From an uncultured bacterium (GTDB lineage: Bacteria > Planctomycetota > Phycisphaerae > Sedimentisphaerales > Anaerobacaceae): a DNA stretch of 38,234 nt. The stretch lies in the NCBI GenBank assembly GCA_913009865.1, contig CAJVYK010000001.1, positions 1 to 38,234 on the forward strand, in the 5' to 3' direction. A program made the position numbers and the translations under genes. The notes under the pieces are model-generated. The model did not search any database. It was not told the DNA's origin and worked only from the letters and a program-made list of their open reading frames with translations. Below, piece after piece: positions 8,299 through 36,956 of the stretch (the first letter of the stretch is position 1; every line of letters begins with the position of its first letter).

Positions 8299-8308
8299 TG
8301 ATACTTCC

Positions 8309-10823: not shown

Positions 10824-10831
10824 ATCAAAAA

Positions 10832-13699: not shown

Positions 13700-13726
13700 T
13701 GAGACCCCTGGAATAAACTCGGCTGT

Positions 13727-15691: not shown

Positions 15692-15720
15692 TTCTTAACT
15701 CCGTTTAGATTGGAAATTTT

Positions 15721-16242: not shown

Positions 16243-16583
16243 ATATTCTTATCCAGTGACTGTGTCGTTGTTTTTGCCTGGCTCGAATCGGTTAAAAATT
16301 TGTATATGTCCTTCCACATCCCGAAGCCGCCGTTGTTTGCGATGTCGCGGGCCAGGTACAGCCAGAATATCCCCTGAACCTGTCCGGATGCGCCATCTTT
16401 GTCAAAGCCCCAGTCCCCGATAGTATTTTTCATCTCGTTCAGCAGTTTATTGATAAAAACCGACTCAAAATCTTTGGCTATTTGTTTCTTCTTCTCTTCC
16501 GAAATACCATCGAGCTTGCCTAAATCCCGCAGGGGACTCGGCGGTGAAACGGCTCCGGTTAATATCAATTTGGCGCTATCCAT
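16239..16583 (-). CDS. flgJ: Rod-binding protein, equivalent to the FlgJ N-terminal domain only, with no muramidase domain.
   Basis: The motif KDFESVFINKLLNEMKNT, followed by ...GGFGMWKDIYKFL, matches the Rod_binding pattern (FEa.fl.qmlk.M ... GG.GlA). The protein is only 114 aa. Confidence 0.75.
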   Translation of the reverse strand: MDSAKLILTGAVSPPSPLRDLGKLDGISEEKKKQIAKDFESVFINKLLNEMKNTIGDWGFDKDGASGQVQGIFWLYLARDIANNGGFGMWKDIYKFLTDSSQAKTTTQSLDKNI

Positions 16584-16615
16584 TAGAGTTACTCCGCCGT
16601 AAGGCGTCCTGTGGC

Positions 16616-17785
16616 CTACATTATTTCCAGCTTAGCTTGAAGAGCGCCGGCTTTTTTCAAGGCGTTGAATATCGCTATGAGGTCTGTTGGCGTCGCTCCT
16701 ATGGCATTGAGGGTTTTAGCCAGGTCTGAGACGGTAACCGTCCGTGGCACAGAAATCAGAAATCCTTCCGGCTCTTCGACTCCTATTATTGTTTCCGGGA
16801 CAACTTCGGTCGTGCCGGCATCAGAGAAAGGCGCTGTGGGCTGGGAGACGTTTGCGGTTTCTTTGATTTTTACAACAAGACTGCCCTGGGAAATCGCCAC
16901 CGCCGATATGCCGACGTTCTCTCCGACCACAATGGTGCCGGTGCGTTCGTTAATAACCACTACCGCAGGGATATCGACCTTCACTTCAAACTTTGTAATA
17001 TCATCGATAAAGCCGGCTATACCTGTCTGACTGATTTCGCTGGGCACTTTGATTTTGATAGTGCCGGGGTCAACTACTGCTGTACTGTCCGGGAAGAGTC
17101 GATTAACGGCTATTCTGATTCGCTCGGCAGTTGAAAAATCATTGTTTCTAAGGTTAAGCGTGATAAACCTGTGGCCCGCAATGTATTCGACAAAGCTGGC
17201 AATTTCGGCCTTTTCAACGATTGCGCCGGAAGGTATTCGGCCGACCGTCTGGTGATTTTTCGTAATCGAGGACTTGTCACCCGATGCCGTCCAGCCGCCA
17301 ATCGAGACGCCTCCCTGAGCTACAGCATATACCTGGCCGTCAAGACCTTTTAGTGGCGTTGCCAAAAGCATTCCGCCCTGAAGACTTTTGGCATCTGCTA
17401 CAGAAGAGACGTCAACATCTATGCGAGATCCCTGGCGGGCAAAAGGCCCCAGTTCTGTCGTTACCATAACAATTGCGATGTTACCGCCGGTCAAATCGCC
17501 GGGAGAAAGAACCAGTCCGGAATCTCTGAATATGTTCGTCAGCATTTGCTGCGACGGCAGGGTGCTGTCACCAGTGCCGGCCAGACCTATAACCAGGCCG
17601 AGACCGGTGAGCGGGTTACCGCGAATCCCTTGAATGTCAACAATGTCTTTTATTCGCTCGCACCGCCCAGTTCCAACTGCACTTAGTAAGATTAAAAACA
17701 AAAGCGTAAAATTGATTATTGATAATTGATTATAGATTTTTCTGCTCTTCACTTTTCGTTTCCTAAAATGGCCGAATGATGTCAA
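16616..17785 (-). CDS. flgI: Flagellar P-ring protein FlgI.
   Basis: It carries RIKDIVDIQGIRGNPLTGLGLVIGLAGTGD, the hallmark FlgI N-terminus after the signal peptide. The C-terminus is DLIAIFNALKKAGALQAKLEI. The start overlaps flgH by 23 nt, so the exact start is uncertain. Confidence 0.92.
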   Translation of the reverse strand: MTSFGHFRKRKVKSRKIYNQLSIINFTLLFLILLSAVGTGRCERIKDIVDIQGIRGNPLTGLGLVIGLAGTGDSTLPSQQMLTNIFRDSGLVLSPGDLTGGNIAIVMVTTELGPFARQGSRIDVDVSSVADAKSLQGGMLLATPLKGLDGQVYAVAQGGVSIGGWTASGDKSSITKNHQTVGRIPSGAIVEKAEIASFVEYIAGHRFITLNLRNNDFSTAERIRIAVNRLFPDSTAVVDPGTIKIKVPSEISQTGIAGFIDDITKFEVKVDIPAVVVINERTGTIVVGENVGISAVAISQGSLVVKIKETANVSQPTAPFSDAGTTEVVPETIIGVEEPEGFLISVPRTVTVSDLAKTLNAIGATPTDLIAIFNALKKAGALQAKLEIM

Positions 17786-18380
17786 ATATTCTGCCGAGCC
17801 AGCCGGGCCTGTTAAATGGCTCCGCTACACCGCCGTTTCTGCTGACAATGCGAAAGTCCGCAATCCGTTCGCTTTTAACGGTATTGTCGAATGCAATGTC
17901 GCTTGTCCGGACTATGCCGCTTACCTCGATGATTTGCTTATCACCTGCGATATTACGGTTGCGAGTCCCCATAACCACAAGATTGCCGTTCGGCAGGATG
18001 TCTATCACCACTACCGTAACCGAATCGATGAAGCTGCGTTCGTCTTTGAAATCGGCTTTACCTTTCAGCTCGTTACTGGATTTGGCCGTCATATTAAAAC
18101 CGGGGATGCTGGGCAGAATATGGTCAATCCCCAGTTTCCCATCGAAGGTTGTTGACCGGTCGGTTTCTTTTTTAAGGTCTCTTTTTGCCTTGTTTTCGAC
18201 CTTGCTGTCTTCGGTAATCGTAATGGTCAGGATGTCGCCTATGTGGCGAGCTACATCGTCGGCGTATAAATCCGGCATATTCCTGTCTCTCCTGGCCCAG
18301 ATGGAGCCGGCCTGCGAGACAGCCGGCGAGGCAAGTAGAAAAGCTATTAAAACAAGCGCTGAAACCATTCTATTGTTCAT
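17763..18380 (-). CDS. flgH: Flagellar L-ring protein FlgH.
   Basis: GSIWARRDRNMPDLYADDVARHIGDILTITITE matches the FlgH core pattern (lf.D.rA..vGDilTV.i.E), and NGNLVVMGTRNRNIAGDKQIIEVSGIVR is also present. An N-terminal signal peptide is present, but the protein contains no cysteine at all. Confidence 0.9.
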   Translation of the reverse strand: MNNRMVSALVLIAFLLASPAVSQAGSIWARRDRNMPDLYADDVARHIGDILTITITEDSKVENKAKRDLKKETDRSTTFDGKLGIDHILPSIPGFNMTAKSSNELKGKADFKDERSFIDSVTVVVIDILPNGNLVVMGTRNRNIAGDKQIIEVSGIVRTSDIAFDNTVKSERIADFRIVSRNGGVAEPFNRPGWLGRIFDIIRPF

Positions 18381-18391
18381 TGTTTCTCCTT

Positions 18392-19378
18392 TTAAAAAAC
18401 AGGCTCTACAGTTCCATCTTCATTGACTTTTGCAAAAATTATCCGGCGTGAGTCCACGTTTCGCACTTTTATATATTCACCTGCCCTGGCCTTTTGCATA
18501 GTTTTTCCGATGGCTGTAATCAGAAGTCCCGGTCTTTCAAGTCGAATGACGACGGTTTGATTTCGGTTAAGCAGAATCGGCGGCTTCACAGCCCCTGCCA
18601 TATTCGGACGAATCACAGTGTTGGCTCCCAGTCGGCGTTTGGTGATAAGACCATAAGGAGGGCTCCAGTTGGCAGGCTCGGGATAGTTTTCAATGCTCTT
18701 TTCTATCCTGACATTCTCAGGGCTGATGACCGTACCTGCGTCGAGTTCGGCCAGTGTTACCACTCTGCGGTAATTGTATTTCAACCGGAAAGTTATTTCA
18801 CGAGTCCCTATCTGTTTGCCGTCGGCAAGTACTGCAATCCGAACCCCGGCCTGGTTTGCAGCACTGCTTCCGGCCAGACGTGGGGACAATTTTATATCTT
18901 TGCTCGCTGTGGGTACGACTAAATCTGCCGGTATCCGTATCGGATTCAGTTGGCAAACAGAATCAGCAGGCGGATTTTTTTCCAGAAAGAGTAAAGCCAG
19001 CTCAACGAATTTGCCGCCCTTGATGATTTGCTGCTGCTGTTTTATCGTTATTTTTTCGGCGCCGGTTAATGTTACTTTAGAAGCCGGGATTCCATTGGAG
19101 GCCAATCTGCTAAGAACAGTCGGCCGGTCAATTATCATTTTCTGACCTGGAACTGAAATCCGCCCTAAGGCAATCTCACCTGCCCTGGCTACGAGAGATT
19201 CTTCGCCCCTGATTATGCCGACCCTGCCCAGACGGACGGTATTGTCCTTAACTGTAACTTCTCTGAGCAGATAAACCTCTATCGTATTGCGCGTATTTTC
19301 GCACAACGCATCGGATGCAGTGCACAACGAATACAGCAGGGAAGTAATTAAGATAAGCCGGATTGTTTTACCGCTCAT
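18392..19378 (-). CDS. flgA: P-ring assembly chaperone FlgA (long form, 328 aa).
   Basis: It has a signal peptide (MSGKTIRLILITSLLYSLCTA). The C-terminus GEYIKVRNVDSRRIIFAKVNEDGTVEPVF is FlgA-typical. It sits between flgG and flgH. Confidence 0.75.
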   Translation of the reverse strand: MSGKTIRLILITSLLYSLCTASDALCENTRNTIEVYLLREVTVKDNTVRLGRVGIIRGEESLVARAGEIALGRISVPGQKMIIDRPTVLSRLASNGIPASKVTLTGAEKITIKQQQQIIKGGKFVELALLFLEKNPPADSVCQLNPIRIPADLVVPTASKDIKLSPRLAGSSAANQAGVRIAVLADGKQIGTREITFRLKYNYRRVVTLAELDAGTVISPENVRIEKSIENYPEPANWSPPYGLITKRRLGANTVIRPNMAGAVKPPILLNRNQTVVIRLERPGLLITAIGKTMQKARAGEYIKVRNVDSRRIIFAKVNEDGTVEPVF

Positions 19379-19387
19379 AATGTTCCT

Positions 19388-20173
19388 TTATCTGACTATT
19401 TGATTTGCCGTTCGAAGCATATCGTCACCTGCCTTTATTGCGCGGGAGTTTATCTCGTATGCTCGTTGGGCGGTTATAAGATTGACCAGTTCGGTTACCA
19501 TTTGGACATTGGATTTCTCCAGAAACCCCGACTGGATAGCGCCGAAGCCGTTTTCTCCGGCTGTGCCGGTCGTAGGTGTGCCGCTTGCCCCGGTTTCGGT
19601 CAGCAGGTTGTCTCCTTCACTGGAAAGCCCCGACGGGTTGGGAAAACGTGCCAACTGAATAGTACCTACAACTGATTGTGTCCCCGCAGCATCAGTAATA
19701 TTGACACTTCCATCCTTGCCGATATCAACCGAGGTGGCATCTGTCGGAATGCTGATAGCCGGTTCTATAGAATAACCGATGGCTGTAACTAACTGGCCGT
19801 CAGCGTTCATTTGCAGCGCTCCGTCGCGGGTATAATTTATGTCTCCGGTTGGCATACTTACCTGAAGGAAGCCGTCCCCTCTAATGGCTATATCGAGTTT
19901 TCGGCCGGTGTTCTGAAACTCGCCGGCTGTAAAAACCTTTACCGTAGAGGCGGCACGGACTCCGCTTCCTATTTCCATACCGCCCGGAGAGGTTATACCT
20001 GAAACCACCTCTGTGCCGGCCTCCCTCATCTTGACATAAAGCAAATCCTGGAAGTCAATCTGGCTTCGCTTGAAGCCGGTGGTGTTGATGTTGGCAAGGT
20101 TATTGGCGATAACATCCACCATCATTTGCTGTGCTGTCATACCTGTCGCTGCGGTTGAAAATGCTCTCAACAT
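19388..20173 (-). CDS. flgG: Distal rod protein FlgG.
   Basis: The N-terminus is MLRAFSTAATGMTAQQMMVDVIANNLANINTTGFKRSQIDFQDLLY. The C-terminus is LEKSNVQMVTELVNLITAQRAYEINSRAIKAGDDML. The length is 261 aa. Confidence 0.92.
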   Translation of the reverse strand: MLRAFSTAATGMTAQQMMVDVIANNLANINTTGFKRSQIDFQDLLYVKMREAGTEVVSGITSPGGMEIGSGVRAASTVKVFTAGEFQNTGRKLDIAIRGDGFLQVSMPTGDINYTRDGALQMNADGQLVTAIGYSIEPAISIPTDATSVDIGKDGSVNITDAAGTQSVVGTIQLARFPNPSGLSSEGDNLLTETGASGTPTTGTAGENGFGAIQSGFLEKSNVQMVTELVNLITAQRAYEINSRAIKAGDDMLRTANQIVR

Positions 20174-20195
20174 AATACCATTCTCCTTATCTTAT

Positions 20196-20224
20196 TAGCG
20201 GATAAGAGAAAAAACTATCCGCTA
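20196..20224 (-). other. Hairpin in the flgF-flgG spacer, possibly an mRNA stability or processing element.
   Basis: The sequence tagcggat...atccgcta forms an 8-bp stem with a 13-nt loop. There is no U-run, so it is not an obvious terminator. Confidence 0.25.
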
Positions 20225-20235
20225 TACGCTGTAAA

Positions 20236-20970
20236 TTAGCCCATGGCTACACTCATAAGACTGCTGCCGGCTTCTTTTTTGGCTGAGATGAATTTCATAT
20301 TCGCTTCGTAGAGCCGGGAGACCATTATCATATTTACTAACTCGTCAACCATCTTAACGTTGGATGACTCCTGGTAGCCCTGTTTTACAACTATATGTTC
20401 GGCTGCAACCGGCTTTATATTCTCCGGCATCCGAAAGCAGCTTGCCCCTGCAGGGACAAGTTTGTTTTCGCTCTTTTCGAAATCGACAAGTTTGAATTTG
20501 CCTATAGTTACGCCGTCTGCACTGATGCTTCCATTACTTGAGACATTCAGTTGTGAAAGCCCAATGCCGGTCGGTATCATAATTGGGCCTGCTTCGCCCG
20601 CTACACTTCTTCCCTGAGAATCCACTATCTGGCCATTTTGGTTCGTGCGGAATGTACCATTGCGGGTGTAAAGCGGCCCCTGGGGTGTTTCTATCACGAA
20701 AAAACCTTTGCCGTACATCGCAAAATCCAACGGTCGGCCTGTCTCCACAATACTGCCCTGGGAGAAATCAAAGGTCGCATTCAAGGCAACTGTGCCGGGT
20801 GATTCTGTTCCCGCCGGCGCCTCTTCTTGGGCCTTAAGGGATTTTGAAAATGCGTTGCATCTACGCTTGTATCCGACCGTACTTACGTTGGCCAGATTGT
20901 GCGTAATGATATTAAATTCCCGCATTAACGTATTAATGCTTGAACTGACCTGGGCTCCTAATTCTGCCAT
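20236..20970 (-). CDS. flgF: Proximal rod protein FlgF.
   Basis: It has the rod-family N-terminus INTLMREFNIITHNLANVSTVGYKR and C-terminus ESSNVKMVDELVNMIMVSRLYEANMKF. It is 244 aa and lies upstream of flgG. Confidence 0.8.
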   Translation of the reverse strand: MAELGAQVSSSINTLMREFNIITHNLANVSTVGYKRRCNAFSKSLKAQEEAPAGTESPGTVALNATFDFSQGSIVETGRPLDFAMYGKGFFVIETPQGPLYTRNGTFRTNQNGQIVDSQGRSVAGEAGPIMIPTGIGLSQLNVSSNGSISADGVTIGKFKLVDFEKSENKLVPAGASCFRMPENIKPVAAEHIVVKQGYQESSNVKMVDELVNMIMVSRLYEANMKFISAKKEAGSSLMSVAMG

Positions 20971-20971
20971 T

Positions 20972-22264
20972 TTAGACTCCCTGCACCGCCGTGGGTTCCT
21001 GAGCGACTCCTTCCGCCCCCTGCTTGTTGCCGGCGGGGGACGGAATATCCTGACCTTCGGGGCCGGTTCTTAAAGAAGCTGCGTTGGTATCGCAGATTAG
21101 CTCATTAACGTCTGAGTCGTTTAGGCCTATTAATTCAACTGCTATTGACAAACCATTTTGTATAGCTTTGGCGTGCCTGACTTCGCCAATATCTTCTACC
21201 ATTTTTGATGCCGCCGTTTCTTCGCCCAATCTAAACACTACCAACACTCTATCACCTACCTCTACCTCTACCTCTAACGGAACCTCCATACGTAAACCAG
21301 GACCAGCCAGCTCGGTAACAACTGCGGGGACAAATTCCGGTGGTCCCCAGGGGCAGCCGGAAGTTACCTGCTTACTGCCGGCAGGGACTTGCTCCGCCTC
21401 GGAACCGGCTTTGCTGCTATCACCATCTCCGACAAGCGTCCTTGTGAAAGGAAAGCGTGCGATGAAGGCCGGCTTGTTTACCGCAACACGCAGGAAACGG
21501 CGGCGATTAATGAATCGAACGTTATCGCTGTGATTCAATACCAATATGTTACCGCTGGAGCCGGCCACGGAGGCATCAAACTCCCAGACCGACGCACCAA
21601 AATAATAACGCGCACGCCAAAACTCTCCGGGCGTACTTTCCAATGGTGTTGTTAATTTAAGCGTCAGCTCTGTATCATTATTTTTTATGACGGTGGACTC
21701 CATATTGCCCGAATTACGATTTATACGACGTGTTATATGAAGTTTTTTACCTATGGGAATCTGTCTGCTGCTTAACTTTTTCAGCTTCGTTGTCGAGCCT
21801 ATCGAGGCGAGAAGCTGTTTTCTAAACCCGAGCTTTTCACGCAGGAAAGACAGTTCGGTTCTCAACATGTTGCTTCCGTCAACACCATTCCGGGCGATAC
21901 TTTCTTCTATCATTTTGGAGGCTCCACGGTCAAATGCGCTGCCCAGAGCGAAAATCGCTTCGCTTCGCTTCAACCCTGCTTTACTTGCTGTATCCAGCAG
22001 AATTTGACGTTCACGCCTGCTCAGCCCCCTCTTCTCAGCATACTCGGCAAATAGCTGGCTGGTAACCTTCAGTTCCTGCGCTGTTCTACGTTTGCTAACC
22101 ACAAAAAACAGTACGACTAATATGATTATGGCAGCCGCACATCCTATAATAAACCACTCTTCGGCTATAGGATTGCTATCGAACTGGCGTGCGGCCTGCC
22201 ACCGTTGGACAGGCGTCATCGCCAAAAAGAAACTAAAAGCTGAAAAGTGAAAGCTAAAAGTCAT
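20972..22264 (-). CDS. Membrane-anchored YcgR-like PilZ-domain protein, a candidate c-di-GMP-responsive flagellar brake.
   Basis: It has one TM helix (WFIIGCAAAIIILVVLFFVV). A PilZN-like beta region (IPIGKKLHITRR...TELTLKLTTP) follows. The PilZ motif 1 is NRRRFLRV (RxxxR), and a motif-2-like sequence VTELAGPGLRMEV (compare D/NxSxxG) follows after an unusually long insert. The annotated start lies inside an AT-rich repeat, so an alternative start at M16 (22219) is likely. Confidence 0.65.
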   Translation of the reverse strand: MTFSFHFSAFSFFLAMTPVQRWQAARQFDSNPIAEEWFIIGCAAAIIILVVLFFVVSKRRTAQELKVTSQLFAEYAEKRGLSRRERQILLDTASKAGLKRSEAIFALGSAFDRGASKMIEESIARNGVDGSNMLRTELSFLREKLGFRKQLLASIGSTTKLKKLSSRQIPIGKKLHITRRINRNSGNMESTVIKNNDTELTLKLTTPLESTPGEFWRARYYFGASVWEFDASVAGSSGNILVLNHSDNVRFINRRRFLRVAVNKPAFIARFPFTRTLVGDGDSSKAGSEAEQVPAGSKQVTSGCPWGPPEFVPAVVTELAGPGLRMEVPLEVEVEVGDRVLVVFRLGEETAASKMVEDIGEVRHAKAIQNGLSIAVELIGLNDSDVNELICDTNAASLRTGPEGQDIPSPAGNKQGAEGVAQEPTAVQGV

Positions 22265-22296
22265 AATGTAAAATTCAAAATTAATCTTTGATTTTT
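22241..22296. repeat. AT-rich intergenic repeat module (copy X) between the flgE stop and the PilZ gene.
   Basis: About 28 of 36 positions are identical between 22247-22282 and 29554-29589. It also shares tgaaaagtga (22241-22250 = 36759-36768), aatgtaaaatt (22265-22275, the reverse complement of 36888-36898) and atctttgattttt (22284-22296, the reverse complement of the first 13 nt of the 62-nt element). Confidence 0.45.
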
Positions 22297-23977
22297 ATCT
22301 GATTAGACTGGTCAGTTCCCGCAGTATTTCGTTGGCAACTCTGATGGTTCTGGCATTGGCCTGGAAGCCGTTTTGGGCCTGAATCATATTGACGAACTCG
22401 ATTGCCACATCGGCGTTGGATTTTTCCAATGCTCCACCGTGAATAGAGCCGGCGCCGCCGGTCATAGCCTGGGTGGCTACCGCCTCACCTGAGTTGGCCG
22501 ACGGAGTGAAGTATCCACCACCGACGCTTTCCAGGCCTGCTGTATTTTGAAACAACGCTATCTGTATGGTGGCAATGTTTTTCTTGATACCGTTGGAGAA
22601 AGCGCCGATAAGTACACCTTCGTTATTAACCGAGACGGTGGAAAGCCGGCCTGCCTCGTAGCCGTCCTGCTCCCTTGCCACTGCGGTAGAGTTTCCGGCA
22701 AACTGTGTCAGGCCGTCCAGCTGGCCTGTGGTACCCATCGATATTGCAATAGATTGTGGACTCGATGTATCATGTGCAAACGTTACTTCAAATTGGGCCA
22801 AATCACCGATGGTAGCGTTTAAACCGGAGTAAGAACCATCGCCGGCATCGAATTCTATACCCCTGATTCGCCGATTATCGAGAGTTATATCATTGATATT
22901 GCCGGTGATTGAGGTAAGTACCATATCCCATGTATTGGCGGTGTCCGCTCGGACGAATGCACCGGAAAGAACATGTTTGCCTCCCTGAGAATCGTAAACT
23001 GTAATGTTGATGGTTTTGACTTCATCTCCACCGACAGTGGTTACCTCGAAATAGGACGGCATCGTCAGTGAAGCGCTGCCATCATCCGCAAACGCCAGCT
23101 TTATATCCGACAGGCTATAACCGCTGTCCACATCGGTTATGCGTATTTTGCCATTGACCAAAGATGCCGCCTGCTCAGTGGAGGTAAGAACATTGTTATT
23201 CAAATGGTCAATAACGTCCTGCAAAGTAGTAGCCCCGGTAACAGTCAGGCCTGTGTCGCTTAAAGCATTGCCGCTTGGGTCGTAACCGGAGGCCGTAATC
23301 GTGGTAGTTGTACCAAACGTTCCGCTGAATTGGTCGAGCTGGTCGAGTTCTGTGCTGCCGATAGCTGTGGTGCCGTTGTTTGTTGTATAAGCTATATTGG
23401 AAGTCAGCATATTTGTTTGTGTTGCAGGAAGTGTCGCATCGGCACTTAGGTTGCCGGCTACTTTCACTGCTGATGTGGCATTTGCCGCCATTGCTACATC
23501 GTAAGGAACGTTAATATCGCTGTTGCCGGCAGTCTGAAAACCGTCACTTTCACCTACTGAACCGATACGCTGGATGGTATAGCCCGTAGCAGGGTCGACC
23601 AGATTCGAGTTTGCGTCAACCGCGAACACACCTGCACGAGTGTAGAGACTTTGTGAACCGTCACTCAATACAAAATAGCCTTCTCCTTCTAACGCCAGGT
23701 CCAGGGGATTGCCTGTATTTACGATATTGCCCTGTGCCATATTGGGGGCTATACCGCTTACCCCAACACCGCTGCCCATCTGCTGAGGATTGGTGCCGCC
23801 GACGGTAGCCGTTGCCTGCGACGCCTTTTTTATCGTCTCACTCAGCAGCTCCGAGAAGGTTATCCTGCTGGCCTTAAAAGCGGTAGTATTGACATTGGCC
23901 AGATTGTTGCCGGCTATATCAAGCATTTTTTGGTGGGCTTGTAACCCGGTAACTCCAGATGACAATGCAAAACTCAT
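22295..23977 (-). CDS. flgE: Flagellar hook protein FlgE.
   Basis: The N-terminus is MSFALSSGVTGLQAHQKMLDIAGNNLANVNTTAFKASRITFSELL. The C-terminus is LEKSNADVAIEFVNMIQAQNGFQANARTIRVANEILRELTSLI. The length is 560 aa. Confidence 0.9.
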   Translation of the reverse strand: MSFALSSGVTGLQAHQKMLDIAGNNLANVNTTAFKASRITFSELLSETIKKASQATATVGGTNPQQMGSGVGVSGIAPNMAQGNIVNTGNPLDLALEGEGYFVLSDGSQSLYTRAGVFAVDANSNLVDPATGYTIQRIGSVGESDGFQTAGNSDINVPYDVAMAANATSAVKVAGNLSADATLPATQTNMLTSNIAYTTNNGTTAIGSTELDQLDQFSGTFGTTTTITASGYDPSGNALSDTGLTVTGATTLQDVIDHLNNNVLTSTEQAASLVNGKIRITDVDSGYSLSDIKLAFADDGSASLTMPSYFEVTTVGGDEVKTINITVYDSQGGKHVLSGAFVRADTANTWDMVLTSITGNINDITLDNRRIRGIEFDAGDGSYSGLNATIGDLAQFEVTFAHDTSSPQSIAISMGTTGQLDGLTQFAGNSTAVAREQDGYEAGRLSTVSVNNEGVLIGAFSNGIKKNIATIQIALFQNTAGLESVGGGYFTPSANSGEAVATQAMTGGAGSIHGGALEKSNADVAIEFVNMIQAQNGFQANARTIRVANEILRELTSLIR

Positions 23978-24025
23978 TTTTCTTTCTCCTTATATTCCTG
24001 GAACATTTAGAATCTCAATTTGACT

Positions 24026-24406
24026 TTAGTTTTTGACCGACATTACCTCTTCTATACCGACCATATAGCTGCCTACTACCAGAAGGTTTTCTCCATCTTC
24101 TTTGTAAACCTGCTCAACTACACCGCTGGTGATATCTTTGGCGCCTGTCTCTGTTTCCGTGATGAATGAAACCTGCTTGCCTATCAGCGAATTGGCGTAG
24201 GTGCTGTTGGCAACGGCAAGGACCTCCGCGAAGTTCGAATTCATTGACTCAAGCTGCTGCAGTTGCGAGAACTGCGCCAGTTGAGAAGCCATTTCGTTAT
24301 TATCCAACGGTTCAAGAGGATTCTGGTTTTGTAACTGCGTTACCAGAAGTTTCATATAATCCATCTGGGCGCTGCTTGCTGTCGCTGTTGGTGATAATTG
24401 CTCCAT
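24026..24406 (-). CDS. flgD: Hook capping/assembly protein FlgD (short, 126 aa).
   Basis: It carries DYMKLLVTQLQNQNPLEPLDNNEMASQLAQFSQLQQLESMN, the FlgD N-terminal signature. An AAGGTGG RBS lies upstream. Confidence 0.85.
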   Translation of the reverse strand: MEQLSPTATASSAQMDYMKLLVTQLQNQNPLEPLDNNEMASQLAQFSQLQQLESMNSNFAEVLAVANSTYANSLIGKQVSFITETETGAKDITSGVVEQVYKEDGENLLVVGSYMVGIEEVMSVKN

Positions 24407-25177: not shown

Positions 25178-26617
25178 ATGGTCTTACGTAGAATTGTTGC
25201 GGTAAGCAGGGATACAGAAATTCAACGATTGGCTCGGCGGGTTGGCCGGGAAATATTTGTGGCTGACGACTTGGCCGAGACCCTGGACATCATTAAGACA
25301 GTCGGACCTGATTTGGTTATTTTTGATGATAGGTTTGGTCCGGGTCATACCCACAAATTCCTTGATACAGTTGGTAAAAATTCAATAAATGTTCCCATCG
25401 TAATAGTTGATGACGGTGAGAACGGGACCGGCTCGTCTGCAGAGTTTATACGGATGGGGGCCGTGGACTGTCTACAGGGCAAGGGCGATTACAGCCGGCT
25501 GGAACAGATTGCAAGCCGAATAAAAAATAAATCCGAACCAGCCGGCGCTGAAAGAGGCACTCTAAAAACCTTCTTTGCTGAAGACTATGCCGCTTCTGTC
25601 GCTATGGTCGGGCGGAGTAAAGCGATACTGGACAAGCTCAAAATGATTAGACTTGTCGCTGCCAGCCGGTGCAATCCGGTTTTGATTGTCGGAGAAACGG
25701 GCACGGGCAAAGAATTAGCGGCTAAGGCAATACATATTCTAAGGCACCGCAATGAAGCGTTTGTAGCTGTAAATTGTGCGGCACTGACGGCTAATCTGCT
25801 GGAAAGTGAACTTTTTGGCCACGTGAAGGGCTCTTTTACAGGGGCTGACAGCGAAAAAATGGGGCTCCTGGAGCTGGCGGGGGCCGGCACGCTCTTTCTT
25901 GATGAGATTTCTGAAATGCCAATGGACCTGCAGGCCAAGCTGCTGCGTGTCATCCAGGAAAAAAACTTCCGAAAAGTCGGAGGTATCAAGAATATCGCCT
26001 GCAAAGCTACGATAATGGCCTCGAGTAATCGCAATCTCTATAAAGAAAGCAGAGCCAATCGCTTCCGGAGTGACCTCTATTATCGGCTGAGTATATGTCC
26101 TATTACTATCGCCCCCCTTAGAACACCTGAGCGAAGAGAAGATATTCCGCTTCTGGCTGAATATTTCCTTGAGACATCAACTATATGCCCGGAAAAAAAA
26201 GGTAAGATAACCTCACTGACTAAATTGGCTGTTGAAGCCCTGCAAAGGCATAACTGGCCGGGCAATGTCCGCGAACTGCGTAATGTTATTGAAAGGGCAA
26301 TACTGCTGGAAACAACAGACAAAATCGGCCTAAGCAGTATTGCAATCAACTCCCTCGAATGTGGTGAGCTATCGGAAGCTGGGCCGGCTGGCAACATCAA
26401 AGATTTTTCACTGGAAAAGGCCGAACGTGAGCTGATTGCCCGGGCCCTGCAGGAAACGGGCTGGCAGAAAACCAGAGCGGCCGGGCTTCTTGGCATAACC
26501 AGGGCAACCCTCTACGCAAAGGTCAAGCAGTACAACATCGAAAAAGGTTCGTATGTTGCAAAAGGATTGCAAAACGAATTCTTAGCGCCGTCCCTGCCTC
26601 AGCTCGTAACGATGTAA
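25178..26617 (+). CDS. Sigma-54-dependent transcriptional activator (bacterial enhancer-binding protein) of FleQ/FlrA type, with a degenerate receiver-like N-terminus.
   Basis: Motifs present are Walker A GETGTGKE, the sigma-54 contact loop GSFTGA (a GAFTGA variant), Walker B LFLDEI, NVRELRN and the Fis-type HTH TRAAGLLGITRATLYAKVKQY. The N-terminus IVAVSRDTE lacks the acidic DD pocket of canonical receivers. Confidence 0.85.
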   Translation: MVLRRIVAVSRDTEIQRLARRVGREIFVADDLAETLDIIKTVGPDLVIFDDRFGPGHTHKFLDTVGKNSINVPIVIVDDGENGTGSSAEFIRMGAVDCLQGKGDYSRLEQIASRIKNKSEPAGAERGTLKTFFAEDYAASVAMVGRSKAILDKLKMIRLVAASRCNPVLIVGETGTGKELAAKAIHILRHRNEAFVAVNCAALTANLLESELFGHVKGSFTGADSEKMGLLELAGAGTLFLDEISEMPMDLQAKLLRVIQEKNFRKVGGIKNIACKATIMASSNRNLYKESRANRFRSDLYYRLSICPITIAPLRTPERREDIPLLAEYFLETSTICPEKKGKITSLTKLAVEALQRHNWPGNVRELRNVIERAILLETTDKIGLSSIAINSLECGELSEAGPAGNIKDFSLEKAERELIARALQETGWQKTRAAGLLGITRATLYAKVKQYNIEKGSYVAKGLQNEFLAPSLPQLVTM

Positions 26618-26822
26618 GGTAGCAATTCTCCAAAACCTCTCCTGAGTGAAGTCGAACGGGCCAGATTCTTTTTTGGTTGAATTGTCGAATTTTGGTTTGT
26701 TCAAAATGTGAAATTTTTAAAAAAGAGTTTTTAAAACTTTTATTTCAGACGCAATAAAGCAGAACACTGATTTCTGTCAGAAAATCTGCCGGCTCGTCTA
26801 AAATACTGACACCTTCCATATC

Positions 26823-26849
26823 TCATAAAGTATATTTCATAAAGCATAT
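26823..26849 (+). promoter_or_regulatory. Direct repeat TCATAAAG(T/C)ATAT x2 upstream of the sigma-54 promoter, a candidate activator or IHF-type site.
   Basis: The copies are tcataaagtatat (26823-26835) and tcataaagcatat (26837-26849), with a 14-nt period. They lie about 50-75 bp upstream of the -24 box and are followed by cgcTTCACGcttcaggTTTCACG. Confidence 0.3.
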
Positions 26850-26896
26850 CCGGTTTTTCGCTTCACGCTTCAGGTTTCACGATTCAAACACAACTC

Positions 26897-26911
26897 TGGC
26901 ACAATTGTTGC
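26897..26911 (+). promoter_or_regulatory. Sigma-54 promoter driving the TPR-TPR-activator operon.
   Basis: The sequence is tggcac-aattg-ttgc(t), an exact match to the TGGCAC-N5-TTGCW consensus. It overlaps the ORF-track start at 26905, so the real start of the downstream CDS must lie further downstream. Confidence 0.7.
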
Positions 26912-27036
26912 TATATGTTGGGAATGCGGGCTACCATTTTGCAATTTGCCGCAGAATAGGGGATGCGTTAGCTCTCCGTCAGGAGTCCATAGGACTGCTA
27001 CAGGTAAACGCTAAGCTGAGGGCGAAGTCGGAATTT

Positions 27037-29544
27037 ATGGCCACAGAAAAACAACCTATTATCGAAAAGAACTCTTCCGAAGTACCTTCGGACAGCGAAT
27101 TATCTGCAGGAGAACCGCTGAGCGAATCGCAGATACCAGAACGTGAAGTGTTTGACGAAGACGAAGATTTTTACAAATATGAGGCGGATTCGGAACAGCA
27201 TGCGACGGTGCAAATTGGGCGTAAGCATTTTTCGACCGTCCAGAAAGTCCTCGTTGTCGGTATCGTTGTGATTGTGGCAGCGCTGCTGTATGCCTTGTTG
27301 AAATCTCCATCAACACCTGCCGGCGGAGAAACAGCTCTCGGTCAACAAAGACCTGCTCCTGAACCGCTGGTTGAAAATGCCGCACAGGCAGTATCGCAGC
27401 AAATCATAAAATTATCCCCTGCCAACCCGGCAGGTGTCCCGATGACGATACAGCCGTTGTCTTTGAAAGTTGCTCAGGACTTCTATTCAGAAGGAGATTA
27501 CCAGAAGGCCTATGCCGCCTATAACCAGCTTCGCCAAAATCTTCCCGCAGGCACGGAAGCAGAATCGCTGAGGGATTTTCTTCAGCTTGAAATGGCTCTC
27601 TGTATGAAGAAAGCCGGCGATTACGACCAGGCCGGCCGTCTGTTCAGAAGGGCTTCGAAAAGCCGATCACCTGTTGTAAGGGTGGTGGCCAATTACCACC
27701 GCAGCCTGCTCGAAATGCGGAAAAAGCAATATCTAAGAGCACGAACCAGAGCTTATCAAACAATCGCCTTAATTGACGCAGTGGATTTGGGCCGAGATTG
27801 GGCTTTGTCGCTGAAGCGGGATTGTTACTTCCTGGTTGCTGAGTGCTTGAGCCGTAATGTCCTTTCGCTTTGCGACGCCGATAAAGAGCTTCCAGATGAT
27901 TTGTGGAGCAATCCCGGCGCACCGGAAGAACTCTTCACCAACCTAAGCGAAGTACAACTGCGAACCGTTTTGAATTCCGGCTCAGAGCAGTTAAGTAAAG
28001 GGCTGCTTGGCCCACAAATTCAGAAACTCGGGCGAGTGAGCGGCTCGCCTCGTTGGTCTGTTACCTGCCGCGGAGCATCGATTGAGGAACTGTTGGCCAG
28101 ATTTGCCGCTAATGCCGGCCTTGATATTCGCTTCTCTTTCGGCGGCGACTCGGCCCTGAAAGGGGCAGACGGTATTCGCAAAAGGCCGGTGAGCTTGTTT
28201 CTGACGGCGGCAACGGTGCAGCAATTCGTCACTGTGGCAGCAGGCGGCGTTGGGTTGGTGGCACGTCTGGATGAGCAAAGAGGTGTAATAAGTATTTTCA
28301 ATCCGGAAAACTATTCGTCTTTATCAGAACATATATCTTTGCTCAGTCAGGAAGCTGTTTCACTTTGGCAAAGATTTTTACTTACGTTTCCCGACGATGA
28401 ACGCAGCACTAATGTTCATTTTGCCATGGGACTTTTGAAAGCGCAAAGAGGCCGGCTAACAGAATCAATCGCAGAATACAAATTGGTGACTAATCGCTCT
28501 TCCGGGACATCCTTGGCACCATTTGCCTTATTACAATCGAGTAAGTTGAAAACCAGCCTGCGGGACTATTCCGGCGCCAGGGAGGATTTGAGTCTGCTCG
28601 TGGAGCAATATCCCGATGTCGAGATTGCCGAGAAGGCCTATTTGTATCTCGCTGATGCTACAATGAAGGCCGGACTTTTGCGACAGGCAGGGAGAGTCTA
28701 TCGAAAAGTTTACAATCTTGATTTGTCCACGGAATCACAGAAGGCGGCAGCACTCGGAGCTGCCAGGTGTTTTTATGAAGAAAAAGACTATGAAACCGCG
28801 GCCAAATGGATGACTCGATACATCGGCTTCGCCAAGAACAGCGCAGGCGGGGATTTGTACTCCGCATATTTTCTACTGGGTAAAACGTTAGCGGCTTTAG
28901 GAAAACCAGAAGCCGCTAACGATGCTTTCCTAAACGCACTGGCGGGAAGTCGGCCTTTGGCAAAAGGAACGCAAAACGGATACCCGACGCAGCTTTCCAG
29001 AGAAGAATATGTGGAAACCGTCTCGGCTCTGGTTAAAGGGTATGTGCGGCAGGAACGCTTCGTCGATGCCCTTGATGTATTGGCGAACATACGCTCAGGG
29101 GTCTTATCCCAGAAAGAATCTGTCGAGATTTTACTACTCAAAAGCGAAATCCTTCGGGCGATGGGGCTGGTTGATAAAGCGGTTGCGGCTCTTGGCGACA
29201 GGACGCAATATTTGTCCGAACCACAATTAAAGGCGAGAATATTATTCGAATTAACCAAATGCTACATCGCTGAAGGGAAATTGGAACTTGCCCGCAGGAA
29301 GTTAACCGAAATTCTTGTTCTCGTCGAACCAGGGCCTTTGGCGGACCAGGTCGCTGTCAAGCTGGCTGGTGTTTGTTTGAAGCTGGGGCAAAATTCCCAA
29401 ACTATTTCTGTTTGTTCGCAGCTTTTAGATTCGGGACCATCAGAGGCGATTAGGCAAAAAGCCCTGGAGCTGTTAGCGACAGCATATAACCGGCAGAAAA
29501 ATTATGACAGGGCGGTATCGGCTCTTTTGGGCAGGTGGAAATAA
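27037..29544 (+). CDS. 835-aa single-pass membrane protein with an acidic N-terminal tail and a TPR-rich extracytoplasmic region. An internal module resembles the secretin-N0/STN fold.
   Basis: I moved the start to ATG 27037 (M45 of the track ORF) because the sigma-54 promoter sits at 26897-26911. The TM helix is VLVVGIVVIVAALLYALL. TPR-like units include AQDFYSEGDYQKAYAAYNQLRQNL, AALGAARCFYEEKDYETAAKWMTRYI and ELLATAYNRQKNYDRAVSALLG. The internal stretch WSVTCRGASIEELLARFAANAGLDIRF...PVSLFLTAATVQQFVTVAAGGVGLVARLDEQRGVISIF resembles the STN/N0 pattern. Confidence 0.75.
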   Translation: MATEKQPIIEKNSSEVPSDSELSAGEPLSESQIPEREVFDEDEDFYKYEADSEQHATVQIGRKHFSTVQKVLVVGIVVIVAALLYALLKSPSTPAGGETALGQQRPAPEPLVENAAQAVSQQIIKLSPANPAGVPMTIQPLSLKVAQDFYSEGDYQKAYAAYNQLRQNLPAGTEAESLRDFLQLEMALCMKKAGDYDQAGRLFRRASKSRSPVVRVVANYHRSLLEMRKKQYLRARTRAYQTIALIDAVDLGRDWALSLKRDCYFLVAECLSRNVLSLCDADKELPDDLWSNPGAPEELFTNLSEVQLRTVLNSGSEQLSKGLLGPQIQKLGRVSGSPRWSVTCRGASIEELLARFAANAGLDIRFSFGGDSALKGADGIRKRPVSLFLTAATVQQFVTVAAGGVGLVARLDEQRGVISIFNPENYSSLSEHISLLSQEAVSLWQRFLLTFPDDERSTNVHFAMGLLKAQRGRLTESIAEYKLVTNRSSGTSLAPFALLQSSKLKTSLRDYSGAREDLSLLVEQYPDVEIAEKAYLYLADATMKAGLLRQAGRVYRKVYNLDLSTESQKAAALGAARCFYEEKDYETAAKWMTRYIGFAKNSAGGDLYSAYFLLGKTLAALGKPEAANDAFLNALAGSRPLAKGTQNGYPTQLSREEYVETVSALVKGYVRQERFVDALDVLANIRSGVLSQKESVEILLLKSEILRAMGLVDKAVAALGDRTQYLSEPQLKARILFELTKCYIAEGKLELARRKLTEILVLVEPGPLADQVAVKLAGVCLKLGQNSQTISVCSQLLDSGPSEAIRQKALELLATAYNRQKNYDRAVSALLGRWK

Positions 29545-29609
29545 AGATTAAAACTGAAAGCTCAAAGTGAAAAACTACAATTCAAAATTCAAAACTTGCA
29601 AATTTTACG
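29545..29609. repeat. AT-rich intergenic repeat module (copy Y) at the junction of the two TPR genes.
   Basis: About 28 of 36 positions in 29554-29589 are identical to 22247-22282. It also contains aattttac (29601-29608), which is shared with 36888-36895. Confidence 0.4.
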
Positions 29610-30586
29610 CTGCCGTTTTGCATTTACCACTCCGCACTTTAAGCTTTTCGTTTTTAGTTTTTTGCCTGCCGGCATCCGCAGGACGCGCGGAAATTTCATC
29701 GGAACAACTCGACCCGATTAATCTTATAGCACCCTATTTAGCTAAAATATCGCAAGATGTGAATACGCCGAATACCGTGATGCATGTTGCCACGTTTCAA
29801 CAGGAGCGCCAGTCCGGAAGACGCCTGACGGCGAAGCAGTCGCAAAGCGGTAGTGATATTGCTTCTGTAAACTTCGCAGCTCAGATTGATGAAAAATTGC
29901 CGCAAAGTAGTTTTACCATTGCAGGAAACCCGCATAGTGACCTCGAACGCCAATTGTGGCGGGCCGGGATTAGTATTCCTGAAAGCAAAGAAGATGAGGG
30001 TGGTAAAAATGAACTTCAGCGGATAATCGAGCAAATCCGCTCCGTTGAGTTTAAGCCGGCAAACCGGCCCACCGAACCTGCCGTTGTCGTTGAGCCGACA
30101 CCAATAACCGAAAATGATGAAATTTCAGCAGTTACGGAAACAGAAACAGCCCAGGGGCCTGATAAAATCGAATCCGAATTGCCATATAATCCTGTAAGCG
30201 GCCAAACTTTGCATAAGCTCGAGAACCTATCGCAATATCCTGACCGGCTGGACAATCCTCTTAAGTTGGGAGAGGTTTTGTTTCTCAGCGGACGGCTGAA
30301 AGAAGCGGTGGTGTTTTACAAAGATGCCCTCAAACGCAAAAGTCCGAACGAGGCCGACTCGGCTCCCCTATGGGGCAGGCAGGACAGGGCCTGGATTCTG
30401 TTTCAAATAGGTAACTGCATGAGGGATAGAGACCGGCCAACGGCTATGAAGATGTACAGGCGGCTAATTACAGAATATCCCGATTCGCCGTGGACAGATT
30501 TGGCGAAGGCCAGGAACAAATTAATCGATTGGTATCAGAAAGACAAACCTCGTGAGTTAATTGTCGAAAACAGGGATGAAAATTGA
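29567..30586 (+). CDS. Secreted/periplasmic protein with a C-terminal YbgF/CpoB-like TPR domain.
   Basis: It has a signal peptide (LRTLSFSFLVFCLPASA/GRAE). The C-terminus is LKLGEVLFLSGRLKEAVVFYKDALKR...WILFQIGNCMRDRDRPTAMKMYRRLITEYPDSPWTDLAKARNKL. The GTG start at 29567 lies in the AT-rich repeat, and the in-frame TTG at 29618 gives a cleaner signal peptide (MHLPLRTLSF...). Confidence 0.65.
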   Translation: MKNYNSKFKTCKFYAAVLHLPLRTLSFSFLVFCLPASAGRAEISSEQLDPINLIAPYLAKISQDVNTPNTVMHVATFQQERQSGRRLTAKQSQSGSDIASVNFAAQIDEKLPQSSFTIAGNPHSDLERQLWRAGISIPESKEDEGGKNELQRIIEQIRSVEFKPANRPTEPAVVVEPTPITENDEISAVTETETAQGPDKIESELPYNPVSGQTLHKLENLSQYPDRLDNPLKLGEVLFLSGRLKEAVVFYKDALKRKSPNEADSAPLWGRQDRAWILFQIGNCMRDRDRPTAMKMYRRLITEYPDSPWTDLAKARNKLIDWYQKDKPRELIVENRDEN

Positions 30587-32165
30587 AATATGGAGTGTGT
30601 TAGAAGTGAATAAAACAGAAATAAACGATGTAAAGCAAGACCGTCAGAAAAGCGGTATTGCAAATGTATTGATAGTTGACAGCGACCCTGAACCGGCTCG
30701 ATTAATACTTGAGATTTTAGCTCGCAAAGGGATTAGCGCCAATCTTGCTAACGATAAAAAAACCGCTGTTGACTTTATGGACAAAGGCGATTACGACCTT
30801 GTGTTCACCGGCGATAAAATAAGTCGGCAGACGGACCTCTCCGGGCAGTCACAGGACGGTTTCGAACTGCTTGCCAAAATCAGGGCGAATTCGCCTGAAC
30901 TGCCGGTGATTATGGTAGCGAAAGCCCAAAAGCGAGGCCCGGAAAACCGGCGGCAAACTATCGAGACAGCCGTCAAGGCCATTCGGGCGGGCTGTTGCGA
31001 TTTCCTAATCAAACCGCTGAACCGTAAAAAAATAGAGGGCCTGCTGGATACCTTCCTGCCTAACCACAGAATTTCAACGCAGGCCGGCGCCGACGAGGGC
31101 GGCCGAAGTCTCTACAGAATTGTGGGCAGAAGCGCCAAACTGTTTCAAACCGTTAATCTGGCTAAAAGAATAGCGCCCACCTCGGCACCGGTTTTGATAA
31201 GCGGTGAAAGCGGGACGGGCAAGGAGCTGATTTCTTTTCTTATCCATCATAAGAGCAAAAGGGCACAGGGGCCATACATCAAAATCAATTGTGCGGCGCT
31301 GAGCGATACGCTTCTTGAAAGTGAGCTGTTCGGCCATGAGAAAGGCGCCTTCACCGGCGCACACATTCGGCGCAGGGGACGATTCGAGATGGCACATGGC
31401 GGGACTTTGCTGCTGGACGAAATCAGCGAAACACCCATAAAATTTCAGGCCAAGCTGCTGCGGGTACTCGAGCAGCAGGATTTCGAACGCGTCGGCGGGA
31501 ATGAAAATGTCAAAGTCAATGTTCGGATAATAAGTACTACCAACAGGGATTTATTACAAGAGGTTTCGGAAGGACGATTCCGTCAGGACCTTTACTACCG
31601 GCTGAGCGGGGTAAGGTTGGTTATCTCGCCTCTGAGAGAACGCTCACAGGATTTGCCTGACCTCGTATGGCATTTTGTCAACCTTTACGTCCGCGAAACG
31701 CAGCGTCGTATCACTAAACTTGACCCTGCGATGATGGATATTTTTGCTAAATACTATTGGCCCGGCAATGTCCGGCAATTGCGAAATGTTGTGTTGACAT
31801 CACTGATTCTGGGAGTCGGCCAAACCCTGTCATTAGCTGATGTCTCCTGGCTTTTCGATGAACTACAGCCACTGCCGGAAATAGCGGACAGCGGGCAGCG
31901 GACAGCGGATAGTAATAGCATAGGGCGCATAGAAAAAGAAAAACTGAACGCTAAACGCTATATGCTAACTCTGCCACAGGTAAACGCTAATTCCGGGCTG
32001 GGGGGAGTGCCGCTTGTGCAGGTAGAGCAGCGGGCGATTTTGGATACTTTACGCCAGACATCGGGCAATCAGACGAAAGCTGCAAACCTGTTGGGTATCA
32101 GTGACAGAACGCTGCGCGGCAAAATACGCCGATACAGGCAGGAAGGCGCTTTGCAGCCGGCCTGA
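30576..32165 (+). CDS. Sigma-54-dependent response-regulator-type activator (NtrC/FleR/FlrC-like).
   Basis: The receiver-like N-terminus reads VLIVDSDPEP...DLVFTGD...FLIKP and contains two loop insertions. Other motifs are Walker A GESGTGKE, GAFTGA, LLLDEI, NVRQLRN and the Fis-type HTH TKAANLLGISDRTLRGKIRRY. I prefer the ATG at 30576, which overlaps the upstream stop at 30584-30586, over the TTG at 30561. Confidence 0.85.
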   Translation: MKIEIWSVLEVNKTEINDVKQDRQKSGIANVLIVDSDPEPARLILEILARKGISANLANDKKTAVDFMDKGDYDLVFTGDKISRQTDLSGQSQDGFELLAKIRANSPELPVIMVAKAQKRGPENRRQTIETAVKAIRAGCCDFLIKPLNRKKIEGLLDTFLPNHRISTQAGADEGGRSLYRIVGRSAKLFQTVNLAKRIAPTSAPVLISGESGTGKELISFLIHHKSKRAQGPYIKINCAALSDTLLESELFGHEKGAFTGAHIRRRGRFEMAHGGTLLLDEISETPIKFQAKLLRVLEQQDFERVGGNENVKVNVRIISTTNRDLLQEVSEGRFRQDLYYRLSGVRLVISPLRERSQDLPDLVWHFVNLYVRETQRRITKLDPAMMDIFAKYYWPGNVRQLRNVVLTSLILGVGQTLSLADVSWLFDELQPLPEIADSGQRTADSNSIGRIEKEKLNAKRYMLTLPQVNANSGLGGVPLVQVEQRAILDTLRQTSGNQTKAANLLGISDRTLRGKIRRYRQEGALQPA

Positions 32166-36939: not shown

Positions 36940-36956
36940 CGAAATACGAGGTAATT

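Follow-up and report, generated by a model that had tools for sequence, protein, structure and literature searches.

Results

A conserved flagellar locus with two sigma-54 activators

The stretch of DNA analysed here (38,234 nt of contig CAJVYK010000001.1, from an uncultured bacterium of the Planctomycetota, class Phycisphaerae; the window in what follows) is a flagellar gene cluster with divergent minus- and plus-strand gene sets (Table 1). On the plus strand, the genes for two sigma-54 activators, the enhancer-binding proteins EBP1 and EBP2, enclose those for two tetratricopeptide repeat (TPR) proteins, TPR1 and TPR2, and are followed by fliL, a fliM-like gene, fliN (an addition to a first-pass annotation made from the sequence alone), flhA and fliA. 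On the minus strand lies an operon running from flgD to flgL, whose hook, rod, ring and hook-associated genes are class III-like. The other flagellar genes (fliE-K, fliO-R, flhB, flgBC and motAB) are located outside the window. Look-ups of FlhA and of the large glycosyltransferase as exact proteins gave nothing that would extend the sequence, and the window appears to make up the entire contig.

A scan of one genome per species gave 21 related loci, and two further, more distant contigs (L022 and L023) complete the set. Where the contigs reach, flgI to flgD and, divergently, EBP1-TPR1-TPR2-EBP2-fliL-fliM-flhA-fliA are found in about 20 loci of Phycisphaerae/Sedimentisphaerales; the flgD-to-flgL operon keeps its gene order in relatives, and the TPR genes stand in a flagellar context in every locus. 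Synteny over some 20 loci puts the arrangement far outside what chance would produce. In many loci the TPR2 and EBP2 genes are closely linked or overlap. Most relatives have 36-180 nt between EBP2 and fliL, a short distance which indicates that the TPR genes probably head an operon of motor genes; the larger distance in the window is due to an 86-nt repeat.

From EBP1 to flhA, the plus-strand genes of the two distant contigs are arranged as in the other loci; in L022, Rnf genes adjoin EBP1 instead of the flg operon. In both contigs several genes are split by frameshifts, with EBP2 called as separate receiver and AAA+/helix-turn-helix (HTH) genes, and in L022 EBP1, TPR1 and FlhA are split as well, as the sigma factor apparently is. 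These splits are probably frameshift errors in long-read assemblies, and a real separation of the EBP2 receiver from its ATPase is possible. One locus, L021, lies in a complete-chromosome metagenome-assembled genome (MAG; CP070830.1, 9842-10606) and holds a 254-aa C-terminal remnant of TPR1 that lacks the cytoplasmic tail and the transmembrane (TM) helix. Upstream of it, genes for a fucosidase, an extracytoplasmic function sigma factor and a chaperone replace EBP1 and the flg operon; TPR2-EBP2-fliL-fliM-flhA-fliA is intact, with Asn at the EBP2 phospho-site. L021 is a rearrangement or an assembly chimera, and could be an artefact.

Neither HisKA nor HATPase_c was detected in Pfam scans of 34 open reading frames (ORFs) of the window, which cover every long ORF, and this bears out the first-pass claim that the 38 kb hold no such domain. 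Furthermore, we found no kinase within 10 kb on either side in the roughly 20 syntenic loci. The same annotation had described the TPR genes as occupying the slot where FleS/FlrB sits, a framing that presumes a gammaproteobacterial ancestor, which nothing here shows.

Two sigma-54 promoters with distinct upstream elements

An exact sigma-54 promoter had been placed between the first activator and the TPR1 gene, and it was found there (TGGCACAATTGTTGC), kept as TGGCACA[AG]TT[AG]TTGC in 14/14 relatives that hold the intergenic region. A second exact promoter of the -24/-12 type, TGGCACACCAATTGC, lies upstream of flgD and recurs at the same place in all eight relatives checked (L002, L003, L004, L006, L007, L008, L016 and L018). 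These are the only exact matches to TGGCAC-N5-TTGC in the window, where shuffled sequence gives an expectation of 0.06. No sigma-54 consensus was found upstream of fliL, flhA or fliA.

Each of the two promoters has its own upstream element. That of TPR1 is preceded by an inverted repeat, TGTCAG-N25-CTGACA, which is nearly invariant in 12 aligned upstream regions. The flgD promoter is preceded by two adjacent and different dyads, CCGGCAAAATTTTCTGG and AGGAAAATTTATCCT as read on the minus strand, of the form CCGG-N9-CYGG and AGGA-N7-TCCT; they form the most conserved block in an alignment of 9 upstream regions. Both elements occur once in the window. That the two promoters have different candidate enhancers fits a scheme in which each answers to an activator of its own, and so a cascade.

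Receiver-like domains of EBP1 and EBP2

EBP1, whose sequence begins MVLRRIVAVSRDTE, carries a Sigma54_activat domain with a GSFTGA loop, together with an AAA lid and an HTH of the Fis type (HTH_8). The domain at its N-terminus resembles a receiver only weakly: in Pfam the FleQ N-domain was not detected and Response_reg was reported below threshold (19.9 bits; cutoff 30.2), and among solved structures LuxO matches best (E = 0.004). The acidic pair, the conserved T/S and the Lys (Gly instead) are missing in 13/13 orthologues, in agreement with the earlier description of a receiver-like N-terminus devoid of an acidic pocket; the Asp after beta3 is mostly retained among the same sequences. EBP1 scores below every NCBIfam equivalog cutoff (FlbD 268.9 bits and FlgR 232 bits, both against 750). 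We regard it as a candidate master regulator.

EBP2 has a GAFTGA motif and a Fis-type HTH (HTH_8 at residues 486-525 of the 534-aa ORF translation, E = 2.8e-12), and it too stays below every NCBIfam equivalog cutoff (FlbD, NF050807, 336.9 bits; FlgR 245 bits; both against 750). Its ATG lies 8 nt before the TPR2 stop codon (30584-30586). The two genes therefore overlap, as had been stated; the overlap amounts to 11 nt and is not an ATGA junction. The receiver residues are D35-S36-D37, D80, A115 (in VIMVAKA) and K146, and two family-specific insertions, in the beta3-alpha3 and beta4-alpha4 loops, flank the active site; here the first-pass reading of DSD, VIMVAKA and two insertions was accurate throughout.

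The closest solved structure to this receiver is that of Brucella NtrX (E = 2e-8). In an AlphaFold2 model based on an alignment of 17 sequences the (beta-alpha)5 fold is intact, with a predicted local distance difference test (pLDDT) score of about 90 in the core. D80 is placed directly after beta3 (75-79), A115 and K146-P147 at the ends of beta4 and beta5, respectively; the beta3-alpha3 loop is longer and of low confidence (80-93), and the second insertion lengthens helix alpha4. Since D80 and K146 are canonical in a well-predicted fold, phosphorylation of the window's EBP2 is in principle still feasible.

The picture for the family comes from 39 EBP2 orthologues, 19 of them from the loci and 20 mostly fragmentary database proteins, all that a homologue search with the receiver alone gave. 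At the phospho-acceptor position (D80) 20 have Asp, 9 have Glu and 10 have Ile, Thr, Asn, Val, Ser or Ala. The T/S position (A115) is occupied by Ala in 24, Thr in 10 and Ser in one, and the second acidic position (S36) by Asn in 16, Ser in 12 and Asp in 8. Lys at position 146 is present in 31 and lost in 4 (Glu in two, Arg in two). Because the phospho-site tolerates hydrophobic residues and holds Asp in only 20/39, phosphotransfer is not a family-wide requirement of EBP2. The doubt that the first-pass annotation cast on canonical phosphotransfer is thus upheld at the level of the family, but not for the window's own protein, which keeps Asp80 and Lys146. An Asp-to-Glu change at the phospho-site renders E. 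coli NtrC partly constitutive.

TPR proteins of the locus

TPR1 matches the earlier description of an 835-aa TM-TPR protein, with one predicted TM helix at residues 67-88. Its structural model (mean pLDDT 72.9) begins with a disordered acidic cytoplasmic tail, followed by the TM helix, a TPR array (143-323), a small alpha/beta domain with floppy loops (329-421) and a TPR superhelix (429-830). The alpha/beta domain had been taken by eye for secretin-N/STN; that assignment was dropped, as Pfam gives only TcpQ (E = 0.22). More than 580 homologues of TPR1 were found in metagenomes, the best 120 having 52-79% identity over nearly the full length, and the named ones come from MAGs of Phycisphaerae/Sedimentisphaerales (Planctomycetota).

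In the alignment the tail is variable except for the motif E-[LV]-F-A-G-[DN]-E-D-F-Y-K, which often has a second ELFAG copy ahead of it (several repeats in one homologue), and an invariant F-S-x-x-Q-K stands directly before the membrane. Such a conserved short motif in the tail implies a cytoplasmic partner. The motif and the receiver Asp of EBP2 are both present in 12 loci; L012 and L017 lack the motif and have Ser or Glu at the site, and L018 is a counter-example in which the TPR1 motif is accompanied by Thr at the EBP2 phospho-site. This weak co-variation is confounded by phylogeny.

A Foldseek search with the TPR1 model returned generic TPR superhelices, with a chain of the C. jejuni periplasmic flagellar scaffold (9hmf_K) at rank 21 (TM-score 0.22); matches this generic mean that the fold search cannot separate a scaffold from a sensor role. 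A profile search against PDB sequences returned only CpoB (E = 1e-4) and designed TPR proteins. The YbgF/CpoB-like stretch of TPR1 spans residues ~439-545, where TIGR02795 scores 69.3 bits; this lies below the cutoff of 90.1, and with a flagellar rather than a tol-pal context it places TPR1 outside the YbgF/CpoB (Tol-Pal) group. TPR2 has a hydrophobic signal-like N-terminus, TPR_6 repeats and a conserved C-terminal TPR domain of ~120 aa, and no TIGR02795 match in NCBIfam. It had been described as a secreted YbgF-like TPR protein: the signal-like N-terminus and the TPRs are indeed there, and the YbgF/CpoB similarity sits in TPR1, not in TPR2.

Other features of the window

Beyond flgL, the minus strand carries genes of flagellin-glycosylation type. 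In the 1574-aa multidomain protein a glycosyltransferase family 1 (GT1)-like domain, a B12-binding radical S-adenosylmethionine (radical-SAM) domain and three GT2 domains are fused; next to it stands an 823-aa fusion of a methyltransferase, a GT2 domain and a CmcI-type O-methyltransferase. As a glycan-modification module attached to a flagellar cluster, this pair is unusually large. A near-consensus sigma-54 promoter with one mismatch, CGGCACAGAATTTGC, lies between flgL and the TPR-glycosyltransferase gene, and the putative flagellin-glycosylation genes may thus be under sigma-54 control too.

Within the flg operon, a 430-aa ORF with an N-terminal TM helix stands between flgE and flgF and occupies the same position in 13 relatives (45-60% identity), with no match in Pfam or NCBIfam. 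On account of its RRRFLR motif it had been considered as a PilZ/YcgR-like brake, an idea dropped without support from either database. A 114-aa ORF between flgI and flgN contains FESVFINKLLNEMK, which resembles the FlgJ rod-binding motif; it has no Pfam match and no muramidase domain. On the plus strand, a small hydrophobic ORF (~80-100 aa, depending on the start codon) with no family assignment lies between flhA and fliA, the interval that houses flhF/flhG in Vibrio and Pseudomonas.

An 86-nt direct repeat occurs after EBP2 and again after flhA, the two copies being 87% identical. Each has an imperfect 5' hairpin and a GC-rich 3' hairpin; the 3' stem differs between the copies with pairing retained, and a T-run follows the first copy, as in a terminator. 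None of the related loci has the repeat, not even the closest, L020, and Rfam gave no match. On these grounds the repeat was rejected as a promoter or small RNA, and is taken to be a strain-specific intergenic repeat.

Table 1. Positions of genes, promoters and other elements in the window
Feature	Position	Strand	Description
EBP1	25178-26617	+	sigma-54 activator, 479 aa (Pfam)
Upstream element of the TPR1 promoter	26775-26811		37-bp inverted repeat TGTCAG-N25-CTGACA; centre ~105 bp upstream of the -24 GG
sigma-54 promoter of TPR1	26897-26911	+	exact; 126 nt upstream of the TPR1 ATG
TPR1	27037 (ATG)-29544	+	835 aa, bitopic membrane protein
TPR2	29567-30586	+	339 aa, signal-like N-terminus and TPR
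EBP2	30576 (ATG)-32165	+	sigma-54 activator with atypical receiver
sigma-54 promoter of flgD	24514-24528	-	exact (-24/-12); upstream of flgD
Upstream element of the flgD promoter	24709-24744		two adjacent dyads
flg operon	12512..24406	-	divergent; flgD, flgE, 430-aa membrane ORF, flgF, flgG, flgA, flgH, flgI, 114-aa ORF, flgN, flgK, flgL (Pfam and NCBIfam matches)
fliL	32430-33020	+	
fliM-like gene	33017-34078	+	
fliN	34134-34541	+	
flhA	34612-36744	+	
fliA	37192-38046	+	sigma-28
Flagellin-glycosylation-type genes	1092-12289	-	glycosyltransferase, methyltransferase and radical-SAM genes
1574-aa multidomain protein	1092-5816	-	glycosyltransferase and radical-SAM fusion
Near-consensus sigma-54 promoter	12376-12390	-	one mismatch
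114-aa ORF	16239-16583	-	
430-aa ORF	20972-22264	-	
86-nt repeat, first copy	32204-32289		after EBP2
86-nt repeat, second copy	36798-36883		after flhA
Small hydrophobic ORF	36906-37208	+	

Discussion

In this planctomycete of Sedimentisphaerales type, the locus would be the core that regulates the flagellar genes. We infer, with good support from the conserved promoters and their distinct upstream elements, that the two activators form a cascade, and we lean towards a cascade that is independent of any kinase, leading from EBP1 to the TPR1-TPR2-EBP2-fliLMN operon and from EBP2 to the hook/rod/ring operon. EBP1 would be a FleQ/FlrA-like master regulator with a dead receiver-like N-domain, which would bind TGTCAG-N25-CTGACA and fire the promoter at 26897. 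This promoter would drive a class II-like operon of TPR1, TPR2 and EBP2 that in most relatives probably extends onward to fliL-fliM-fliN. Newly made EBP2 would then switch on the divergent flgD-to-flgL promoter, alone or together with EBP1, and FliA (sigma-28) would serve the last tier. The order of activator 1, promoter and activator 2 had been proposed in the first-pass annotation; conservation of the promoter and the different elements at the two promoters fit it, and which activator acts where is what we infer in addition. What would chiefly determine the activity of EBP2 is its own synthesis, possibly along with a protein partner, and phosphotransfer would not be obligatory. For the family, the claim that phosphotransfer is dispensable is supported, and loss of the Asp in 19/39 orthologues suggests that EBP2 activity may be independent of receiver phosphorylation.

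Most probably, TPR1 and TPR2 are parts of the flagellar machine in the envelope, and they share an operon with EBP2 by happenstance. With TPR1 anchored in the inner membrane and TPR2 in the periplasm, a stator or collar scaffold working with FliL would be their likeliest role, by analogy with TPR pairs of other phyla. PflA/PflB of Campylobacterota, FlcA/FlcB of spirochaetes and MotC/MotK of Alphaproteobacteria are such pairs, periplasmic stator/collar scaffolds that work with FliL, and an evolutionary link of these scaffolds to YbgF/CpoB-type TPR proteins has been proposed (PMC12222027, PMC13023049). As in those systems, a pair of TPR-rich envelope proteins accompanies the flagellar genes here, and one large partner of ~800 aa is anchored in the inner membrane. 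Neither the conserved acidic motif of the TPR1 tail nor the alpha/beta domain in the middle of TPR1 figures in the accounts of those scaffolds that we consulted.

Several points weigh against the kinase-free cascade with a scaffold role for the TPR proteins. In the window's EBP2, D80, K146 and a pair of acidic residues nearby are retained, and the Asp survives in half of the family, so that phosphorylation by an orphan kinase is possible. A purely periplasmic scaffold leaves the conserved acidic cytoplasmic motif of TPR1 unexplained. In addition, the searches gave only generic TPR matches and no specific sequence or fold similarity of the TPR proteins to PflA/PflB, FlcA or MotC. Finally, to judge from sequence, EBP1 might do what is here assigned to EBP2 and the reverse, or the two might share these roles.

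The layout looks like a variant of known kinase-free flagellar cascades and not like a new kind of signalling. The order of the genes and the conserved promoter fit the pattern of the FleQ/FleT system, which has two sigma-54 activators and no histidine kinase, the second activator being encoded in a sigma-54 operon of structural genes that the first one drives; its second tier drives hook and basal-body genes and fliA. FleT is not known to have a DNA-binding domain and acts in a heteromer with FleQ. EBP2 differs in having a receiver-like domain and an HTH of its own; moreover, the genes that would be co-transcribed with it are the two TPR genes and fliLMN, not fliEFGHIJ, and the phylum is another one. 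In the Fla1 system of Cereibacter (Rhodobacter) sphaeroides, FleQ drives a sigma-54 operon of fleT and fliEFGHIJ, and FleQ/FleT then activate class III genes (PMC7277832).

FlbD of Caulobacter crescentus is comparable to EBP2 as read here, being a second-tier sigma-54 flagellar activator with a divergent receiver and no cognate kinase; in Caulobacter, a partner protein linked to assembly determines how active it is. The flbD gene is located in the fliF operon. FlbD lacks key phosphorylation residues, has no known kinase, is active unphosphorylated and is controlled by FliX (PMC3096577). No Pfam match to the FliX family was found among the window ORFs, and EBP2, at less than half of the NF050807 cutoff, is not an FlbD equivalog. 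Furthermore, the top tier here is a sigma-54 activator, whereas in Caulobacter it is CtrA.

The four-tier polar flagellar hierarchies FleQ-FleSR (Pseudomonas) and FlrA-FlrBC (Vibrio; PMC7064773) have in common with this locus, as read here, a master sigma-54 activator with a non-phosphorylatable N-domain and, after it, a second activator of the NtrC type that serves rod and hook genes; an early tier with flhA and fliA and a last one with sigma-28; and sigma-54 promoters ahead of early and middle flagellar operons, here those of TPR1 and flgD, both conserved. The present locus departs from them in having no adjacent kinase and a second activator whose receiver is degenerate family-wide, and, unlike Vibrio and Pseudomonas, it has no flhF/flhG between flhA and fliA. 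Absence of a flagellum-associated two-component system has been noted in Xanthomonas campestris (PMC7064773). For Planctomycetia, a recent computational survey places motility genes under predicted sigma-54 control, and the arrangement reported here is not described there (PMC12316311).

Among the alternatives, the one that stands up best, which we nonetheless hold to be unlikely, is a canonical two-component system whose kinase is encoded elsewhere: an orphan cytoplasmic kinase of the FlrB/FleS/FlgS type would phosphorylate D80 of EBP2, and the TPR genes would be unrelated passengers. D35, D37, D80 and K146-P147 are canonical in a confident (beta-alpha)5 fold, 20/39 orthologues keep the Asp, and the closest solved receiver, NtrX, is a phosphorylatable regulator. 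Moreover, only 38 kb are visible and the remaining flagellar genes are located elsewhere. These points are countered by the 19/39 orthologues without the Asp, among them hydrophobic and Asn/Ser/Thr replacements, by Ala in place of T/S in 24/39, by Ser, Asn or Gly in place of the Mg-binding second acidic residue in 29/39, and by the lack of a kinase within 10 kb in the roughly 20 loci.

The sensing model of the first-pass annotation is a minority possibility, and a doubtful one. It would make TPR1 and TPR2 a transmembrane sensor of envelope or assembly state whose acidic tail binds the EBP2 receiver and switches it on or off, a kinase substitute and a membrane-spanning analogue of FliX-FlbD. 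The conserved motif in the tail is the best point in its favour and the sensing idea's sole support: TPR1 is bitopic, and its cytoplasmic tail combines E[LV]FAGDEDFYK with the invariant F-S-x-x-Q-K. Consistent with the model are also the tight linkage or overlap of TPR2 and EBP2, the receiver insertions that flank a degenerate phospho-site, the weak co-variation of tail motif and Asp (12 loci with both, L012 and L017 with neither) and the precedent that FliX-FlbD sets for control of a flagellar activator by a partner protein (PMC3096577). However, phylogeny confounds the co-variation, to which L018 is an exception, and L021 retains EBP2 next to a TPR1 remnant without tail and TM helix (possibly a MAG assembly artefact). 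The second-tier checkpoint of polar flagellates consists of the cytoplasmic MS ring, rotor and export gate and is not periplasmic (PMC7064773), and every large TPR protein from a flagellar locus that has been studied is structural. Co-transcription of an activator with structural genes is normal, as fleT illustrates (PMC7277832); the TPR genes probably head the motor-gene operon, given the 36-180 nt between EBP2 and fliL in most relatives; and TPR pairs that work with FliL are periplasmic stator/collar scaffolds in other phyla (PMC12222027, PMC13023049). In a more explicit form, which we consider quite doubtful, TPR1 would be a transmembrane transducer that needs no kinase: its TPR array in the periplasm would, with TPR2, signal the condition of the envelope or the nascent flagellum, and its motif would dock on an aspartate-optional EBP2 receiver and so gate transcription of the hook, rod and ring genes. 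If true, this would be a new route coupling periplasmic assembly to an enhancer-binding protein.

A FleQ/FleT-style hetero-oligomer, with EBP1 alone firing the TPR1 promoter and mixed EBP1/EBP2 firing that of flgD, is very doubtful, as EBP2 has its own HTH_8, unlike FleT, even if the two different adjacent dyads at flgD could seat two different HTH dimers. The precedent for such an oligomer is that of R. sphaeroides (PMC7277832).

Our literature searches found no experimental study of flagellar gene control in Planctomycetota. For this lineage, the kinase-independent cascade that we favour gives a conserved wiring diagram with a pair of activators and a pair of promoters, each promoter having a different upstream element, and it would be a further and independent example, from outside the proteobacteria, of a second-tier sigma-54 flagellar activator freed from kinase dependence. 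The natural replacements of the phospho-site Asp by Glu, Asn, Ser, Thr, Val and Ile form a series in which the change from receiver to pseudo-receiver can be studied. In addition, the two conserved, uncharacterised TPR envelope proteins are probable components of the flagellum and, as such, candidate new ones.

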